From assembly GCA_040389125.1 (NCBI GenBank), contig JAZKAN010000002.1:1232-65231 (forward strand): a stretch of 64,000 nt of DNA. Reading direction: 5' to 3'. The translations under genes were made by a program, and so were the position numbers. The stretch is from Patescibacteria group bacterium. Its GTDB lineage: Bacteria; Patescibacteriota; Minisyncoccia; Phycocordibacterales; DATDWN01. The notes below the pieces were generated by a model, which worked only from the letters and a program-made list of their open reading frames with translations, was not told the origin of the DNA and searched no databases. Below, in pieces: positions 3,495 to 62,679 of the stretch (position 1 is its first letter; every line of letters begins with the position of its first letter).

Positions 3495-3527
3495 GCTGGC
3501 GTACCCTATCTCGGTCCGCCAGCTTTT
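3495..3527 (+). terminator. Intrinsic terminator of cassette 2
   Basis: GCTGGCG (3495-3501) pairs with CGCCAGC (3517-3523), followed by TTTT. It is homologous in layout and sequence to the terminators at 2978 and 4215. Confidence 0.65.
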
Positions 3528-3583
3528 CGTGTCTACACCATATAAATTTAAATTAAGCTCTCAACCCAGCCTTTTTCTACCCC

Positions 3584-3612
3584 TTGCATTTTATTCTTAT
3601 GTGTGATATAAT
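3584..3612 (+). promoter_or_regulatory. Sigma70-like promoter of cassette 3
   Basis: TTGCAT (3584-3589), 17-nt spacer, TATAAT (3607-3612). Confidence 0.5.
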
Positions 3613-3693
3613 ACAGGAGAAAGCTGAAGTGGGGCAGCTATAGACTCCATTCGCCGTCGGGCGTTAAATAGATCATTGATAAGGTGGTAGAAA

Positions 3694-4194
3694 ATGTTTG
3701 AAACGAATCAGACCCTCACAATTCAGTGGCCAGCACCCCTGGTCATTGTAGCGTCCCTCGCGTTTGCAATTCTGATAGTTGGTGGAGGTGCATGGTACCT
3801 TCATTGGCGAATCAAGGTAGTTATCGAGAAAGCTCTGAGCAAAGGAAAGGGTCTAAGTCATAAAGACGCTCAGCTCCAGACTACTCGCTACAATCTTGCT
3901 GGGCAGATTAAAAATACTCTGGCAACAACTGCAAAAGATCACCCAGTAAGTGATTTCATTCATGTGGAAAACTTATCGGATCGAGCAGAACTTTGCAGGT
4001 ATGTTGTGACAGCTTTCTATGTAAAAAGAAGCGTTGAATTGATTGTCCAAGTGACTGTGATGAAAGACTCGATTACTGCTCAAACTGCTTCTGGTCCGCA
4101 CAGTAGTCTGGGGTGCAGGGCTGATAGCGGAGACATGCTACTTTTTTTGGAAGGAATAAAAGATGAGGTCAGGGAGTTTAGGCCTAAATCCTAA
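3694..4194 (+). CDS. Hypothetical membrane-anchored protein (orphan cassette 3)
   Basis: 166-aa ORF with AAGGTGG 7 nt upstream. It has an N-terminal TM helix (LVIVASLAFAILIVGGGAWYL) and the same overall layout as cassette 1. Confidence 0.6.
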   Translation: MFETNQTLTIQWPAPLVIVASLAFAILIVGGGAWYLHWRIKVVIEKALSKGKGLSHKDAQLQTTRYNLAGQIKNTLATTAKDHPVSDFIHVENLSDRAELCRYVVTAFYVKRSVELIVQVTVMKDSITAQTASGPHSSLGCRADSGDMLLFLEGIKDEVREFRPKS

Positions 4195-4214
4195 ACACTT
4201 GAATCATCATACTA

Positions 4215-4246
4215 GCCGGTGCGTCCTTCGGGACGCGCCGGCTTTT
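4215..4246 (+). terminator. Intrinsic terminator of cassette 3
   Basis: GCCGGTGCGTCC, loop TTCG, GGACGCGCCGGC, followed by TTTT. Confidence 0.75.
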
Positions 4247-4273
4247 CACATGCAAAAAATTACGTACCCACTA

Positions 4274-4443
4274 GCATTACAGAAGCATGAGCATTTTTGG
4301 AGACCCCGCAGGCCTGAAGCATGGTTCTGTCAACGACCCGCCTTTTAGGGGCGGGCTCATTGACAGATTCAGGTCGAGGAAATGCTGAAAGTCCCGCAGG
4401 GGACTTGAAGGAATCTCCAAAAATGCTCATGCTTCTGTAATGC
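4274..4443 (+). repeat. Nested-palindrome repeat, family A, copy 1
   Basis: A 30-nt outer arm GCATTACAGAAGCATGAGCATTTTTGGAGA (4274-4303) is exactly complementary to 4414-4443. The inner core CCGCAGGCCTGAAGCATGGTTCTGTCAACGAC..CTCATTGACAGATTCAGGTCGAGG is shared with 41795-41951 and 43798-43984. Confidence 0.7.
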
Positions 4444-4454
4444 GAACTCTTAGT

Positions 4455-4483
4455 TTGACTCCCACACGGTAATCTGATAGTAT
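4455..4483 (+). promoter_or_regulatory. Sigma70-like promoter that restarts the r-protein operon at rpsN
   Basis: TTGACT (4455-4460), 17-nt spacer, TAGTAT (4478-4483), about 30 nt upstream of rpsN. Confidence 0.5.
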
Positions 4484-4514
4484 GACCCCAGCTTGTAAAA
4501 GCTAATTTTATTTC

Positions 4515-4700
4515 ATGGCAAAAACATCAGTAAAAGCACGAGCAGCTAAAACCCCGAAATTCGGGACACGAGCGGTAAACCGTTGCTTTCGATGTAGTCG
4601 AAAACACGGATTCATGCGTGATTTCGGTCTCTGCAGAATCTGTTTTCGAGAGTTAGCAAACGAGGGAAAAATCCCTGGAATAAAAAAGTCCTCATGGTAG
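4515..4700 (+). CDS. rpsN: 30S ribosomal protein S14, short zinc-ribbon (type Z) form
   Basis: 61 aa with CFRCSRKHGFMRDFGLCRICFRE (CxxC...CxxC) and a C-terminal KSSW. Confidence 0.93.
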   Translation: MAKTSVKARAAKTPKFGTRAVNRCFRCSRKHGFMRDFGLCRICFRELANEGKIPGIKKSSW

Positions 4701-4777
4701 AGGCGCAAAACTAGTTGTCTCGGTAAGTCAGAGAATCTCTTCTCTCGATACTACCCAGATATAATACACAACACACA

Positions 4778-5167
4778 ATGCACGACCCAATTGGAGATAT
4801 GATTATCCGAATAAAGAACGCCTCAGACTCACGAAAAGAATCTGTGGTATTTCCGCATTCAAAACTCAAACTGGCTATTCTCGACACACTTCTAAAGGAA
4901 GGTTACGTAAAGTCATTTGGAAAGAAAGGTAAAAAGGTAGCAAAATTCATCGAGGTTGTTCTCGTATACGTAGACGGAGCACCACGAATCACTGGTGTCG
5001 AGCGTGTGTCAAAAACATCAAAGCGAATCTACACAAAGTCACAGGAGATTCGATCTGTAAAAAGTGGAATGGGATCGCTCATTCTCTCGACTCCACAGGG
5101 AATTATGACAGACAAGGCTGCTAAAAAGGCAAATGTTGGAGGCGAGGCTCTCTTTAAAATCTGGTAA
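4778..5167 (+). CDS. rpsH: 30S ribosomal protein S8
   Basis: 129 aa starting MHDPIGDMIIRIKNA and ending GGEALFKIW, a typical S8. Confidence 0.96.
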   Translation: MHDPIGDMIIRIKNASDSRKESVVFPHSKLKLAILDTLLKEGYVKSFGKKGKKVAKFIEVVLVYVDGAPRITGVERVSKTSKRIYTKSQEIRSVKSGMGSLILSTPQGIMTDKAAKKANVGGEALFKIW

Positions 5168-5177
5168 TACAAAACAT

Positions 5178-5711
5178 ATGTCACGAATCGGAAAAAAAAT
5201 AATAGCAATTCCAGAGAAAACAACAGTCACTACAGACGGTCTGAATTTTACTGTAGTTGGACCACTCGGAACACTCACAAAAAAGTTCAAGTCTGATATC
5301 GTGATCACGATAGGAGACAAAGAAATCACTCTCGAACCAAAACGCGTGACACTTGAAAACAAGGCACTGTGGGGAACATATGCATCCCACCTCATGAATA
5401 TGGTAAACGGCGTTACAACTCCATTTTCTAAAAAACTGATCATCGAGGGAATCGGATATAAATCTGAAGTCAAAGGCGACAACCTCGTCATGGCTCTCGG
5501 ATTTTCACACCCTGTTATTGTTCCGATTCCAAAGGGCTTGAAAGTAACTGCAGAGAAAAATATCATCACTGCAACAGGTATCGACAAAGAAGTCGTGGGA
5601 GAGTTTGTTGCAAACATACGATCACTCAAGAAACCAGAACCATACAAAGGTAAGGGTATTCGATACGAGGGAGAAGTGGTCAAGCGTAAACAAGGCAAGA
5701 AATCTGCATAA
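5178..5711 (+). CDS. rplF: 50S ribosomal protein L6
   Basis: The in-frame ATG at 5178 gives MSRIGKKIIAIPEKTTV, the canonical L6 N-terminus. The track start at 5133 overlaps rpsH. Confidence 0.95.
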   Translation: MSRIGKKIIAIPEKTTVTTDGLNFTVVGPLGTLTKKFKSDIVITIGDKEITLEPKRVTLENKALWGTYASHLMNMVNGVTTPFSKKLIIEGIGYKSEVKGDNLVMALGFSHPVIVPIPKGLKVTAEKNIITATGIDKEVVGEFVANIRSLKKPEPYKGKGIRYEGEVVKRKQGKKSA

Positions 5712-5730: not shown

Positions 5731-6081
5731 ATGAAATCATTAAACATTAAAAACGAAAAGAGAGTACGACGACACGCGAGAATTCGCTACAGTGTTGTGG
5801 GTACTCCTACAAAGCCCCGCCTCTCTGTATTCAAGTCAAACAAACACATCGCTGTTCAGCTGATCGATGATGAAAACGCAGTCACACTCGCGTCAGTACA
5901 TTCTCGAGATGTTAAAGGTAAAACAATGATGGAAAAGTCGAGAGCAGTCGGAGAGGCAATCGCTACAAAAGCGGCTGCCAAGAAAATTGAGACGGTTGTT
6001 TTTGACCGAGGAGGATTCCGATACATTGGGTGTGTGGAGGCTCTCGCAGAAGGCGCACGCAAAGGCGGACTCAAATTTTAA
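5731..6081 (+). CDS. rplR: 50S ribosomal protein L18
   Basis: 116 aa with RRHARIR, PRLSVFKSNKHIAVQLIDD and FDRGGFRYIG. Confidence 0.95.
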   Translation: MKSLNIKNEKRVRRHARIRYSVVGTPTKPRLSVFKSNKHIAVQLIDDENAVTLASVHSRDVKGKTMMEKSRAVGEAIATKAAAKKIETVVFDRGGFRYIGCVEALAEGARKGGLKF

Positions 6082-6089
6082 AAAATATT

Positions 6090-6683
6090 ATGGATACAGA
6101 AATTAAAAAAACAGAAGGTGATGTGGTAAGTGCAGGAGCACCTGATTCTCGCGATAATGCGCAGGGTGGTAGTCAAGGTTCATCGCGTGAATTTCGAAAG
6201 AATACTCGCAAGGCACCTCCACGCCGTGAGGCTCGCGTCAAGCCTGAATTCGATCAGAAGATCGTCAGCATTCGCCGCGTGACTCGAGTGGTAACAGGAG
6301 GCCGACGATTCAGTTTCTCTGTTGGTATTGTGATTGGTGACCGCAAGGGTCGCGTCGGTGTGGGACAAGGCAAGGCAGGAGACACTCCGATCGCTATCGA
6401 CAAGGCTGTTCGTGATGCTCGCAAAAACATGATCACTGTCCCTATGACCAAAAATGGTTCGATTCCACACGAAGTTGACGCAAAGTTCTCGAGCTCTCGA
6501 GTACACATCATGCGTGCACCAGGCAAGGGTATTCTCGCTGGATCGTCTGTTCGAACAGTACTTGAATTCGCTGGCGTAAAAGAAGTCAGTGCAAAAATCT
6601 TTTCTCGAAGCAAGAACAAAGTAAACAATGCCAAAGCAGCAGTAAAGGCTCTCGCAACACTCAAGTTGCCAAAGAATAAATAA
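6090..6683 (+). CDS. rpsE: 30S ribosomal protein S5
   Basis: ATG at 6090. The protein contains RRVTRVVTGGRRFSFSVGIVIGDRKGRVGVGQGKA, the S5 dsRBD signature. Confidence 0.95.
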   Translation: MDTEIKKTEGDVVSAGAPDSRDNAQGGSQGSSREFRKNTRKAPPRREARVKPEFDQKIVSIRRVTRVVTGGRRFSFSVGIVIGDRKGRVGVGQGKAGDTPIAIDKAVRDARKNMITVPMTKNGSIPHEVDAKFSSSRVHIMRAPGKGILAGSSVRTVLEFAGVKEVSAKIFSRSKNKVNNAKAAVKALATLKLPKNK

Positions 6684-28869: not shown

Positions 28870-28942
28870 GCGCGTGTAGCTCAGTTGGTAGAGCGTTCGT
28901 CTTATACACGAATGGCCGGGGGTCCGAATCCCTCCACGCGCA
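28870..28942 (+). tRNA. tRNA-Ile, anticodon UAU
   Basis: Hand-folded cloverleaf. Acceptor GCGCGTG/CACGCGC, D arm GCTC-AGTTGGTA-GAGC, anticodon arm TTCGT-CTTATAC-ACGAA (TAT at 28913-28915), T arm GGGGG-TCCGAAT-CCCTC. No encoded CCA. Confidence 0.8.
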
Positions 28943-29103
28943 CAAAAAATTATATTTACAATGAAAAGAGAAGACAAAATTTTGATAATATCGATCGGTG
29001 TTCTAATTCTTGTATACATCCTTATACAATTTGTCCGTGTGAACTGGAACTGGTATCAAAATGAAAAGGCGATGAGGGCTGAATCCTCATTACAAATTTT
29101 TTC

Positions 29104-39598: not shown

Positions 39599-39638
39599 GA
39601 ATTTAAATTAGTATATTAAATTATATCTTGTTCATATG

Positions 39639-39725
39639 CGGAGGATGTGAGATTTGAACTCACGGTCCAGTTTCCCGGACGGCGGTTTAGTAAACCGCTG
39701 GTTTAAACCACTCACCCAATCCTCC
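39639..39725 (-). tRNA. Class II tRNA (Ser-like: long variable arm, G73) with apparent anticodon ACU
   Basis: Acceptor GGAGGAT/ATCCTCC. Anticodon arm GCGGT-TTACTAA-ACCGC. Variable arm GTCCGG-GAAA-CTGGAC. T arm GTGAG-TTCAAAT-CTCAC. Discriminator G. Confidence 0.75.
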
Positions 39726-61388: not shown

Positions 61389-61398
61389 GTGATTAAAC

Positions 61399-61426
61399 AA
61401 AATCACCCCAAAAGGGTGATTTTGTT
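61399..61426 (+). terminator. Intrinsic terminator
   Basis: ATCACCC, loop CAAAA, GGGTGAT, followed by TTTGTT. Confidence 0.75.
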
Positions 61427-61432
61427 ATCTTG

Positions 61433-61776
61433 TTGCGGGACCAGGACTTGCACCTGGGTCTGAAGGTTATGCTTTCCACTATAGTTTTCACTACTTCCAA
61501 ATTTCAAAAATTTGTAATTTGTGGTCTGGACTATACCATTTCCTTTTTCAAACGAGTTTGAAGGTAAGGAATTCACCATCTAGTCTCTACACATTTATCA
61601 GTTGATTTTAGTCATCTGAATTTAGCTCGGAATTGTCTTTCTCTACTATACTATAGTAAAGAGAGGATTTCTCCGAATTTGGCGAATGCAATCCTAAAAA
61701 TTTCTTTTTAGGTGGCCCATACAGGATGCAAGATCCAATACTTGAGCCTTCCGAGATACTGCTTCTCTATCCCGCT
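61433..61776 (-). tRNA. Initiator-like tRNA(CAU) interrupted by a 273-nt group I intron in the anticodon loop
   Basis: The 5' exon (61776-61745) is AGCGGGA-TA-GAGA-AGCAGTA-TCTC-G-GAAGG-CT. The 3' exon (61471-61433) is CATAA-CCTTC-AGAC-CCAGG-TGCAAGT-CCTGG-TCCCGCA-A. The spliced loop is CTCATAA. Features are A11:U24 and a 1:72 mismatch. Confidence 0.75.
61472..61744 (-). mobile_element. Group I self-splicing intron (IC3/Azoarcus-like core)
   Basis: The minus strand contains GTGTAGAGACTAGATGG (plus-strand 61576-61592) and CAAATTCGGAGAAATCC (61665-61681). As recalled, these closely match the Azoarcus tRNA-Ile intron core segments. U precedes the 5' splice site and G ends the intron. Confidence 0.75.
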
Positions 61777-61847
61777 ATAGGGAATCATACAGTGTTTTGG
61801 TTTATATGCAAGTTGTTTTTGTACCATAGTTGTATTAATATATACCT

Positions 61848-62522
61848 ATGCACAATCCATCTATTAGATATAAGGCACTTGAATTACGTCAAAAAGGTAC
61901 AAGTCTAAATGAGATCGCAACTAGCCTTGAATTAAAAAAATCCACAGTAAGTTATTGGTGCAAGAATATTGTATTAAAAGAATCTGCAATCAAGAAAATT
62001 AAAATAAAGGGTAGGGAGAAATCTGTGCATGCACTACTACGATATTCTGAGATAAAAAGGAAAGAAAGAATTGAAAGAGATTTTGTTCAAAAGAAAGGTG
62101 GTGTAAATTTTGTAGGTGCGGTATCTAGAAGAGACATTCTTATGGCAGGATTCGGATTATATTGGGGAGAGGGATATAAGGTTGGGGAGCTTGGTTTTAC
62201 CAACAGTAATCCCAAAATTATTAAATTTTATCTTGCATGGATCAAGCAATTCGATGTCCAAAAAATTGATCTCATATTTCGCCTAACAATTAATCAGGCA
62301 TTTAAGTCATACGAAAAACAAATTAAGGATTTTTGGGTGAGGTTTCTCGGTGTTAAAGAAAATCAATTTTCCAAAACTACATGTATACAGACAATATTGA
62401 GAAAAGAGTTTATTCCTGACACGTCTAGTTATAAAGGAGTACTGCGTGTAAAAGTTAGAAGGGGACTATCACTTAAAAATAAGATTCTTGGTGCAATCGA
62501 ACATATTTCTACTTGTGTCTGA
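61848..62522 (+). CDS. HTH plus LAGLIDADG-like putative homing endonuclease (free-standing)
   Basis: 224 aa. The N-terminal HTH is GTSLNEIATSLELKKSTVSYWCKN. ILMAGFGLYWGEGYK (nt about 62139-62177) resembles a single LAGLIDADG motif. It lies 72 nt from the intron-containing tRNA. Confidence 0.5.
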   Translation: MHNPSIRYKALELRQKGTSLNEIATSLELKKSTVSYWCKNIVLKESAIKKIKIKGREKSVHALLRYSEIKRKERIERDFVQKKGGVNFVGAVSRRDILMAGFGLYWGEGYKVGELGFTNSNPKIIKFYLAWIKQFDVQKIDLIFRLTINQAFKSYEKQIKDFWVRFLGVKENQFSKTTCIQTILRKEFIPDTSSYKGVLRVKVRRGLSLKNKILGAIEHISTCV

Positions 62523-62568: not shown

Positions 62569-62639
62569 GTCGGTGTAGTTCAATGGTAGAACGGAGGACT
62601 CATAAGCCTTAAACCGTGGTCCGATTCCACGCATCGACA
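62569..62639 (+). tRNA. tRNA(CAU), probably elongator Met
   Basis: Acceptor GTCGGTG/CATCGAC. D arm GTTC-AATGGTA-GAAC. Anticodon loop CTCATAA. T arm CGTGG-TCCGATT-CCACG. Discriminator A. Confidence 0.8.
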
Positions 62640-62679
62640 CAAAATTTGTTTCTCGTGTGTATTCGTGCTAATCTAAATC

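Follow-up and report, generated by a model that had tools for sequence, protein, structure and literature searches.

The closest described counterparts of the locus reported here come from phages, in which a free-standing endonuclease can mobilise a neighbouring group I intron that has no open reading frame (ORF) of its own. MobE of phage T4 drives the trans homing of the neighbouring nrdB intron (PMC2790892), collaborative homing of this kind has been reviewed with a summary of two phage systems (PMC3984707), and F-CphI is a further phage case of trans homing (PMC6083498). The window analysed here is a stretch of 64,000 nucleotides (64 kb) from contig JAZKAN010000002.1 of a member of the ultrasmall Patescibacteria, or Candidate Phyla Radiation (CPR), in which an ORF of 224 amino acids (aa) stands beside an initiator-type tRNA(CAU) gene that is split by a group I intron lacking an ORF. 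The likeness to the phage systems lies in the arrangement: a free-standing ORF is found at most about 100 bp from a group I intron without a working endonuclease, the ORF and the intron are inherited and absent together, and the intron sits in a highly conserved target. However, the setting here is a cellular chromosome, the target is a tRNA gene and the arrangement is widespread across a bacterial class; the phage enzymes are HNH or Endo VII-like, whereas the window protein is in neither family.

The endonuclease I-Ssp6803I is encoded inside its intron. It is a PD-(D/E)xK tetramer with a 23-bp pseudo-palindromic target (PMC3384342), and the group I intron of the cyanobacterial tRNA-fMet gene is credited, in a citation within the review (PMC3984707), to Bonocora and Shub (2001). 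The window locus resembles this system in having an initiator tRNA with a group I intron and a proposed target, the anticodon region, that is pseudo-palindromic, but its ORF lies outside the intron and encodes a helix-turn-helix (HTH), and the C-terminal domain has no PD-(D/E)xK match. T4 SegB is a free-standing GIY-YIG homing endonuclease, encoded in a tRNA gene cluster, that recognises a tRNA T-loop motif (PMC2330249). Common to SegB and the locus described here are a free-standing gene among tRNA genes and the recognition, proposed in our case, of a conserved tRNA structural motif in DNA. SegB spreads itself together with neighbouring tRNA genes, and the ORF-plus-tRNA cassettes of two loci described below (L081 and L208) look analogous. 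It differs in being a phage GIY-YIG enzyme that has no intron, with its site in the T-loop, whereas the scars seen here lie mainly in the anticodon region.

Results and discussion

The window locus

We regard it as about evenly balanced whether the window ORF encodes a free-standing homing-type nuclease of an undescribed family, co-mobilised with the neighbouring intron and shielded by it; this is the reading that we prefer. Two features expected of trans homing were found, namely a structurally complete, ORF-less group I intron in a conserved gene and an adjacent, co-inherited, free-standing gene. A preliminary description of the locus had proposed just such a partner of the intron, and the claim that the protein may be its trans-acting partner is now supported by comparative genomics: by co-occurrence, co-absence, several geometries and two tRNAs. 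Nuclease activity, with the cleavage that the description implied, the target site, dimerisation and the immunity conferred by the intron are what we infer. The elements of the locus are as follows.

61432-61471, minus strand: 3' exon of the initiator-type tRNA(CAU), beginning CAUAACC
61472-61744, minus strand: ORF-less group I intron of 273 nucleotides (nt), between U33 and C34 of the anticodon loop, with G as last base
61745-61776, minus strand: 5' exon of the initiator-type tRNA(CAU), 32 nt, with U33 as last base
61777-61847, no strand: divergent spacer of 71 nt that separates the start of the ORF from the 5' end of the tRNA
61848-62522, plus strand: 224-aa ORF, stop codon included, with an N-terminal HTH, a long linker helix and a C-terminal alpha/beta domain (from homologues and AlphaFold)
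62569-62640, plus strand: intron-less, elongator-type tRNA-Met(CAU), separated from the ORF by 46 nt and marking the right-hand limit of its insertion; at empty sites it stands 81 nt from the initiator tRNA

With introns allowed, ARAGORN reports the split tRNA at 61432-61776 on the minus strand, with an intron of 273 nt. The Rfam model Intron_gpI (RF00028) aligns in full (positions 1-253 of 253) with 61505-61735 on the same strand and scores 64.4 bits against a gathering threshold of 50; the list of ORFs contains no credible one within the 273 nt, which agrees with the earlier remark that the intron has no room for an ORF. Its boundaries were set by group I rules (U as the last base of the 5' exon, G as that of the intron) and agree also with homology to 58 related loci. 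The spliced anticodon loop is CUCAUAA, with anticodon CAU; the Leu(CAA) call made by ARAGORN was rejected as an artefact of boundary placement. In the exons, AGCGGGA...UCCCGCA-A, positions 1 and 72 are mismatched and position 73 is A, the exon consensus in relatives is xGCGGGG...CCCCGCAAC, and we assign the split tRNA to the bacterial initiator type. By its sequence, a GGGCC about 25 nt into the intron can pair with the exon-end GGCU.

The ORF begins with ATG; its homologues start at the same Met, which supports this choice of start codon. ORF 61848-62522 is a genuine gene. As had been described, it lies on the strand opposite to the tRNA, at a distance of 71 nt (72 when counted from start to end), and the homologous spacer measures 70-150 nt in most related loci.

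Linkage of the ORF to group I introns

Eighty genome loci (numbered with an L) were fetched through the protein, and all intron-bearing loci were thus sampled through the ORF. An nhmmer intron profile places a group I intron at most 365 nt from the ORF in 78 of the 80 and at most 250 nt from it in 75; the loci without an nhmmer intron near the ORF are L079 and L080. The profile also recovers introns at L001, L056, L060 and L070-74, all of them outside the set from which it was built. Scores above the Rfam gathering threshold were obtained for 11 of 17 loci in one set and 16 of 18 in another, and in most of the 80 loci ARAGORN finds a split tRNA 70-150 nt upstream of the ORF. After splice-site correction, all partners of the main subfamily are initiator tRNA(CAU). 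The many different target tRNAs suggested by ARAGORN, namely Leu(CAA/CAG), Ser(UGA) and Glu(UUC), were rejected, all of them being initiator tRNA(CAU) by group I rules.

The sole true second intron-bearing target is tRNA-Phe. A second subfamily, 23-30% identical to the window protein, adjoins tRNA-Phe(GAA) with an intron between U33 and G34 in 12 of 12 contexts. Its ORF lies just 3' of tRNA-Phe in L075-78 and L209-212, and just 5' of it in L081-86, L213 and L214; one order is tRNA-Val, tRNA-Phe(intron), ORF, tRNA-Gly, and in Wolfebacteria the stop codon of the ORF abuts the intron-bearing tRNA-Phe. With three geometries and two tRNAs, the link between ORF and intron is therefore more than inherited gene order. 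The Wolfebacteria module of tRNA-Phe(intron) and ORF (L081-L086, about 3934-5711) lies directly upstream of a 23S rRNA gene.

The co-occurrence in related genomes that a partnership would entail is borne out by these counts. Near-obligate co-occurrence with the intron (78/80 and 12/12) and co-absence at empty sites would, though, also be expected of a maturase-like splicing cofactor that binds the precursor tRNA or the intron RNA, aids its folding and splicing, and is kept because the initiator tRNA is essential. Strong purifying selection on a mostly intact ORF would suit such a protein, and some homing endonucleases act as, or became, splicing factors (PMC3384342). We nevertheless consider a maturase unlikely, and the idea, already raised in the preliminary description, is weakened by the relatives of the ORF that adjoin intron-less tRNA-Arg, Glu, Val and Gln genes as well as intron-less initiator tRNA. 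One ORF subclade moreover pairs with introns at two insertion sites, tRNA-Asp group I introns occur in the same loci without an adjacent ORF, and the intron matches the entire catalytic-core model of Rfam. The N-terminal module of the protein resembles DNA-binding HTHs of transposase or terminase type, and the tRNA remnants and scars described below indicate events at the level of DNA.

The tRNA-Asp(GUC) introns, apparently at U35/C36, were noted at L070:2312-2639 (minus strand), L012 (about 4386-4700), L033 (about 3518-3800) and L141:934-1243. That of L070 scores 82.5 bits with Rfam, the other three being weaker nhmmer or ARAGORN calls, and no family ORF was found anywhere in the 7.5 kb of L141.

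Two insertion sites are used in the initiator tRNA, 33/34 (ggcu^...G^cauaacc) and 36/37 (ggcucau^...G^aacc), and introns of both kinds are interspersed within one ORF subclade. The position 36/37 is also the insertion site of the Azoarcus tRNA-Ile intron. The starts of introns of the 36/37 type (AGGAAACUGUGA...) contain GUGA, which by its sequence can pair with the exon-end UCAU, with a U-G pair at the splice site. If the intron acts as a shield, such a mixture is expected, because any insertion into the anticodon loop would protect the gene.

Empty sites

Intron-less initiator tRNA genes of the window type were sought in metagenomes, and 80 loci were recovered. A family ORF is present in only six of them, and in four of the 43 that extend for 900 nt or more on each side. 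The readable ORFs among these are all variant, with YW[AC]EG[SNA]K or, in L158, YWGEGTK in the place of the signature motif, and proteins with the canonical EGYK were not seen beside intron-less initiator tRNA in this sample. Together with the use of either anticodon-loop position, this is consistent with the intron as a shield. Ten intron-less tRNAs, the mature sequences of which are 96-100% identical to spliced intron-bearing tRNAs, have no ORF. Two of the empty loci, L157 and L145, are syntenic with filled loci, with the same upstream genes and the same tRNA-Met and tRNA-Asp, and have no intron; their spacer measures 81-87 nt, compared with an ORF segment of about 755 nt in the filled locus L022. 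The flanks of empty L157 and filled L022 are 72.6% identical, against 64-74% between filled loci. These comparisons suggest repeated joint gain or loss of ORF and intron, with flank divergence near saturation, and they support the conclusion that in the CPR initiator tRNA the ORF may be gained and lost together with the intron. The divergence of the ORF is correlated with that of its flanks at r = 0.11, which, with identities of about 70%, is too noisy for a proof of horizontal transfer.

The predicted protein

The following parts of the protein were delimited.

61857-61958, plus strand: HTH DNA-binding module (aa 4-37), from weak Pfam HTH matches at aa 5-45 and three AlphaFold helices
62016-62114, plus strand: single long linker helix (aa 57-89) in the AlphaFold model, with a predicted local distance difference test (pLDDT) value of about 90
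62127-62519, plus strand: C-terminal alpha/beta domain (aa 94-224) in the AlphaFold model, of a fold without library match, putatively catalytic
62136-62180, plus strand: signature motif ILMAGFGLYWGEGYK (aa 97-111) with E108 and K111, from conservation in 74 homologues
62193-62210, plus strand: further conserved block, GFTNSN (aa 116-121), located at the strand of the hairpin and where the following helix begins

The full-length AlphaFold model, made with 31 homologues in the input, has a pLDDT of 85; that of the C-domain alone, made with 53 sequences, has a pLDDT of 88.6 and a predicted template modelling score of 0.80. Three short helices at aa 4-37 form the N-terminal module, in which R14, G17, I23 and W37 are invariant among the 74 aligned homologues. 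Within aa 5-45 of the window protein, Pfam Terminase_5 reaches 20.4 bits against a cutoff of 20.3, and HTH_38, GerE and HTH_23 score under their cutoffs; other members of the family exceed that of HTH_23. Across Pfam, NCBIfam, PHROGs and both sequence and profile searches of the PDB, the N-terminal 45 residues were the sole region matched, weakly and to HTHs of transposase, terminase or resolvase type. The HTH of the preliminary description is thereby confirmed.

The C-domain follows the order helix, short hairpin, helix, strand, helix, strand, strand, helix, and it matches no model in Pfam, NCBIfam or PHROGs. At an E-value of at most 1e-3, Foldseek found nothing in the PDB for the full-length or the C-domain model and nothing in BFVD, a viral library, for the C-domain model; the best template modelling (TM) scores of the C-domain were 0.37 (PDB) and 0.34 (BFVD). 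Alpha/beta matches resembling IspF, OmpA and RusA (TM of at most 0.37) were set aside as non-informative.

The single motif of the preliminary description is present at aa 97-111, and it is strongly conserved. Among the 74 homologues, which extend down to 24% identity, L104, Y105, G109 and Y110 are 100% conserved, G103, W106, G107 and E108 99%, and K111 97%; because of this conservation at 97-100%, the motif GLYWGEGYK stands far above chance. E108 of GLYWGEG lies at the end of the helix 94-107. In the GFTNSN block, N119 is conserved at 99%, S120 at 92%, and G116, F117 and T118 at 91%; W163 and G197 are invariant.

An architecture combining a LAGLIDADG-like part with an HTH can be that of a regulator, as in WhiA (Pfam LAGLIDADG_WhiA), and a domesticated DNA-binding regulator of this kind, an inert derivative of a nuclease fold that controls transcription of the adjacent tRNA through its HTH, would agree with the HTH domain itself, with the divergent 71-nt spacer shared with the tRNA gene and with the long-term conservation. 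We consider it very unlikely. An acidic residue and a lysine that stay near-invariant in the motif even at 24% identity would be unusual for an inert scaffold, and the ORF is placed variably with respect to the tRNA, either divergent from it, upstream of it, or downstream on the same strand. A regulator would also leave unexplained the joint absence of ORF and intron at loci with identical tRNAs, and the strain-level presence or absence accompanied by tRNA remnants.

Relation to LAGLIDADG enzymes

The ORF had been described as encoding a LAGLIDADG-like protein, and this claim did not hold: membership in the family is not supported. No LAGLIDADG family was found in Pfam for the window protein even at E-values up to 10, nor for four of its relatives at up to 1, and sequence and profile searches of the PDB returned only HTH matches for the window protein and none to LAGLIDADG. 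There was likewise no LAGLIDADG structure among the 50 matches listed in each of three Foldseek searches (full-length model against the PDB, and C-domain against the PDB and BFVD). Aligned by hhalign with 25 LAGLIDADG_3 proteins of CPR bacteria, the ORF family gave a probability of 0.4% and an E-value of 0.14; the single best path, which is non-significant, pairs GLYWGEGYK...LGFTNSNPKII with GLIVTDGNLS...INFTSKDIEL, and matches the motif helix, the hairpin and the next helix to the same elements of LAGLIDADG_3. The predicted C-domain departs from the LAGLIDADG core of alpha-beta-beta-alpha-beta-beta-alpha, so that the fold prediction also speaks against membership. LAGLIDADG proteins have a conserved acidic residue where the motif helix ends on its C-terminal side, a trait that E108 shares without membership being established thereby, and a mechanistic likeness, consisting of an acidic residue that ends a Gly-rich helix, is possible.

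In both the ORF family and LAGLIDADG_1/LAGLIDADG_3, a helix ending in G-[DE]-G is followed by a hairpin and then by a strand-helix pattern x-F-T/S-x-D/N, and both include single-domain and tandem-fused forms. The ORF family differs in an extra predicted helix between the third and fourth strands and in its N-terminal HTH. A bona fide free-standing LAGLIDADG_3 gene was recognised at L210:294-944 (minus strand), encoding 216 aa and ending 4 nt from tRNA-Leu(GAG); its product, with 38.9 bits on LAGLIDADG_3 (PF14528), served as positive control. This LAGLIDADG_3 family has 2267 homologues in CPR bacteria, with 54-67% identity among those aligned. Given the L210 gene beside tRNA-Leu, true LAGLIDADG genes therefore share the niche beside tRNA genes.

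The protein family

Homologues of the window protein are about 225 aa long, and two different queries yielded 616 and 717 clusters at 90% identity, the latter with a query from the second (tRNA-Phe) subfamily. At 50% identity there are 677 representatives at an E-value of at most 1e-30 and 3779 at 1e-10 or below; all are annotated in their sources as hypothetical or HTH. The pattern of the wider family is Y-W-[GAC]-E-G-x-K. Among the 80 copies, about seven are truncated or have stop codons in the reading frame.

Tandem fusions of two domains occur in the family, including in cultured Actinomadura, and parallel other dimeric homing enzymes. Three cultured actinobacterial genomes, two of them named Actinomadura, carry the tandem form 43-101 nt upstream of tRNA-Gln, and the family protein could be studied in these organisms. 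The tandem two-domain proteins concerned (L216:3001-4599, L217:2001-3275 and L218:2001-3683) have 424-560 aa and share a syntenic site with the order desaturase, ORF, tRNA-Gln(UUG), glmU-like, prs.

A phage origin was rejected, with only two weak loci in 2.9 million viral contigs. Exact look-ups of the window proteins for strain variants of the locus gave one short extra contig only. Many contigs with family members end less than 1 kb from the ORF, and the regions around these ORFs may break assemblies.

The literature searched contained nothing on the protein family or on its linkage to introns, and that CPR tRNAs carry group I introns appears as a passing mention in one source (PMC8172020). 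The family is undescribed. What appears to be new is the family of proteins, its setting at tRNA genes of cellular genomes, and the scale, the kind of system being known from phages.

tRNA scars and cassettes

Among Wolfebacteria, a cassette is present in L081 and L085 and absent from L083 and L086, the downstream regions being 98.9% identical. It consists of a third paralogue (motif LMLYWAEGDK) and a new tRNA-Arg(UCU), followed by a remnant of the resident tRNA-Arg that begins at about nucleotide 36. The third paralogue (L081:1189-1917, plus strand) encodes 242 aa, overlaps the 5' end of tRNA-Arg(UCU) by 38 nt and is variable among Wolfebacteria strains. At L106 a pseudo-initiator tRNA with a 9-nt scar in its anticodon loop stands beside an intact copy and the ORF, and in L208 the order is tRNA-Glu, ORF, remnant of the tRNA-Glu 3' end. 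The remnants and scars of L081 and L106, in which the tRNA is interrupted at the anticodon region, would be indirect hints of cleavage there.

The cassettes of L081 and L208, with their displaced tRNA 3' remnant, recall integration at tRNA genes. A small recombinase- or transposase-like protein might insert a minimal cassette, sometimes with a tRNA copy, at such genes, the intron link then being secondary; the HTH, which is similar to those of IS630, IS3 and resolvases, and the constant position beside tRNA genes, including in Actinomadura, would suit it. This we hold to be quite unlikely, however. No terminal inverted repeats surround the ORF, the ends of the remnant and of the new tRNA are not identical core repeats, and no known recombinase catalytic domain was found, only the HTH being transposase-like. 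Each locus has a single copy in fixed position, the copies are not dispersed, and the near-absence of the canonical subfamilies where there is no intron would be left unexplained. An insertion sequence element was rejected for the window itself: no terminal inverted repeats bracket the ORF, no transposase catalytic domain was recognised, and the motif occurs once in the 64 kb.

Copies of tRNA 3' ends, 18-22 nt long, recur about 100-300 nt downstream of the same gene (tRNA-Met, Asp, Thr and Gly), for example at L013:4917-4935; L036:5668-5688, 5956-5977 and 6108-6129; L030:3594-3614; and L078:3153-3170. They could be remnants of earlier replacements or exons of uncalled split tRNAs.

Proposed mechanism and its weighing

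If the protein is a homing-type nuclease, the HTH would serve for DNA binding, and the end of the Y-W-G-E-G-Y-K helix in the C-domain would supply an acidic residue and a lysine. The protein, probably dimeric, would recognise an intron-less initiator tRNA gene by the DNA of its anticodon stem-loop, which is inherently palindromic, and would break the gene there. Repair templated by the ORF-bearing allele would then transfer the group I intron, itself without an ORF, along with the ORF, which lies about 100 bp from the insertion site of the intron. The recognition site of the donor would be split by its intron and the essential tRNA gene thereby protected, while self-splicing of the RNA would keep the tRNA functional. 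A broader version is more tentative, though we take it seriously: that the proteins form a very large family of homing endonucleases targeting tRNA genes, of a new or a LAGLIDADG-diverged fold, which maintain the introns of the CPR initiator tRNA and tRNA-Phe in the manner of an addiction. The logic of that addiction, equally tentative, would be that the intron alone shields the essential tRNA gene from the neighbouring nuclease.

Several observations weigh against the nuclease that we prefer. No library or structure search recognised a nuclease fold or motif. Intron-bearing initiator tRNAs were sampled only via the ORF, their frequency without it lying outside the sample; two pattern scans of viral contigs for such tRNAs independent of the ORF found none. 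The tRNA-Asp group I introns occur without an adjacent family ORF. The ORF is strongly conserved and mostly intact across the whole bacterial class, which could mean a function beneficial to the host. Identity between filled and empty flanks is only about 70%, and the initiator tRNA thus offers no example of a recent gain or loss. Finally, intact relatives adjoin intron-less initiator tRNA genes at L143, L106, L116 and L118, so that a simple model of cutting the intron-less allele needs altered specificity or activity in these cases.

Neighbouring features of the window

Downstream of the ORF, the elongator-type tRNA-Met is followed by a 186-aa ORF and then by tRNA-Asp. A possible bidirectional terminator is a perfect 13-bp hairpin (AACAAAATCACCC/GGGTGATTTTGTT) at 61396-61426, located between the 3' end of the split tRNA and the upstream gene of 322 aa. 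Elsewhere in the window ARAGORN reports a tRNA-Ile with anticodon UAU (28870-28943, plus strand) and a tRNA-Ser with anticodon ACU (39638-39725, minus strand), both unusual for bacteria; the presence of tRNA-Ile(UAU) would agree with an initiator and an elongator Met identity, and not tRNA-Ile2, for the pair of CAU tRNAs near the ORF.

Conclusion

The analysis flags intron-split tRNA genes that standard tRNA finders miss, and provides a functional lead for a family of 677 clusters that carry no annotation beyond 'hypothetical' or 'HTH'. As a nuclease, the protein would represent a new family of homing endonucleases with long, conserved targets in tRNA genes. Collaborative homing, of which two or three phage cases are on record, would, if the reading is true, be found in hundreds of cellular lineages, and would be a widespread trait of cellular genomes and not a phage curiosity. 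The natural intermediates (ORF only, ORF with intron at two sites, and neither) would make the proposed pathway by which mobile introns originate testable, and the partnership would account for the survival of group I introns within tRNA genes that are essential to the genome-reduced CPR bacteria.

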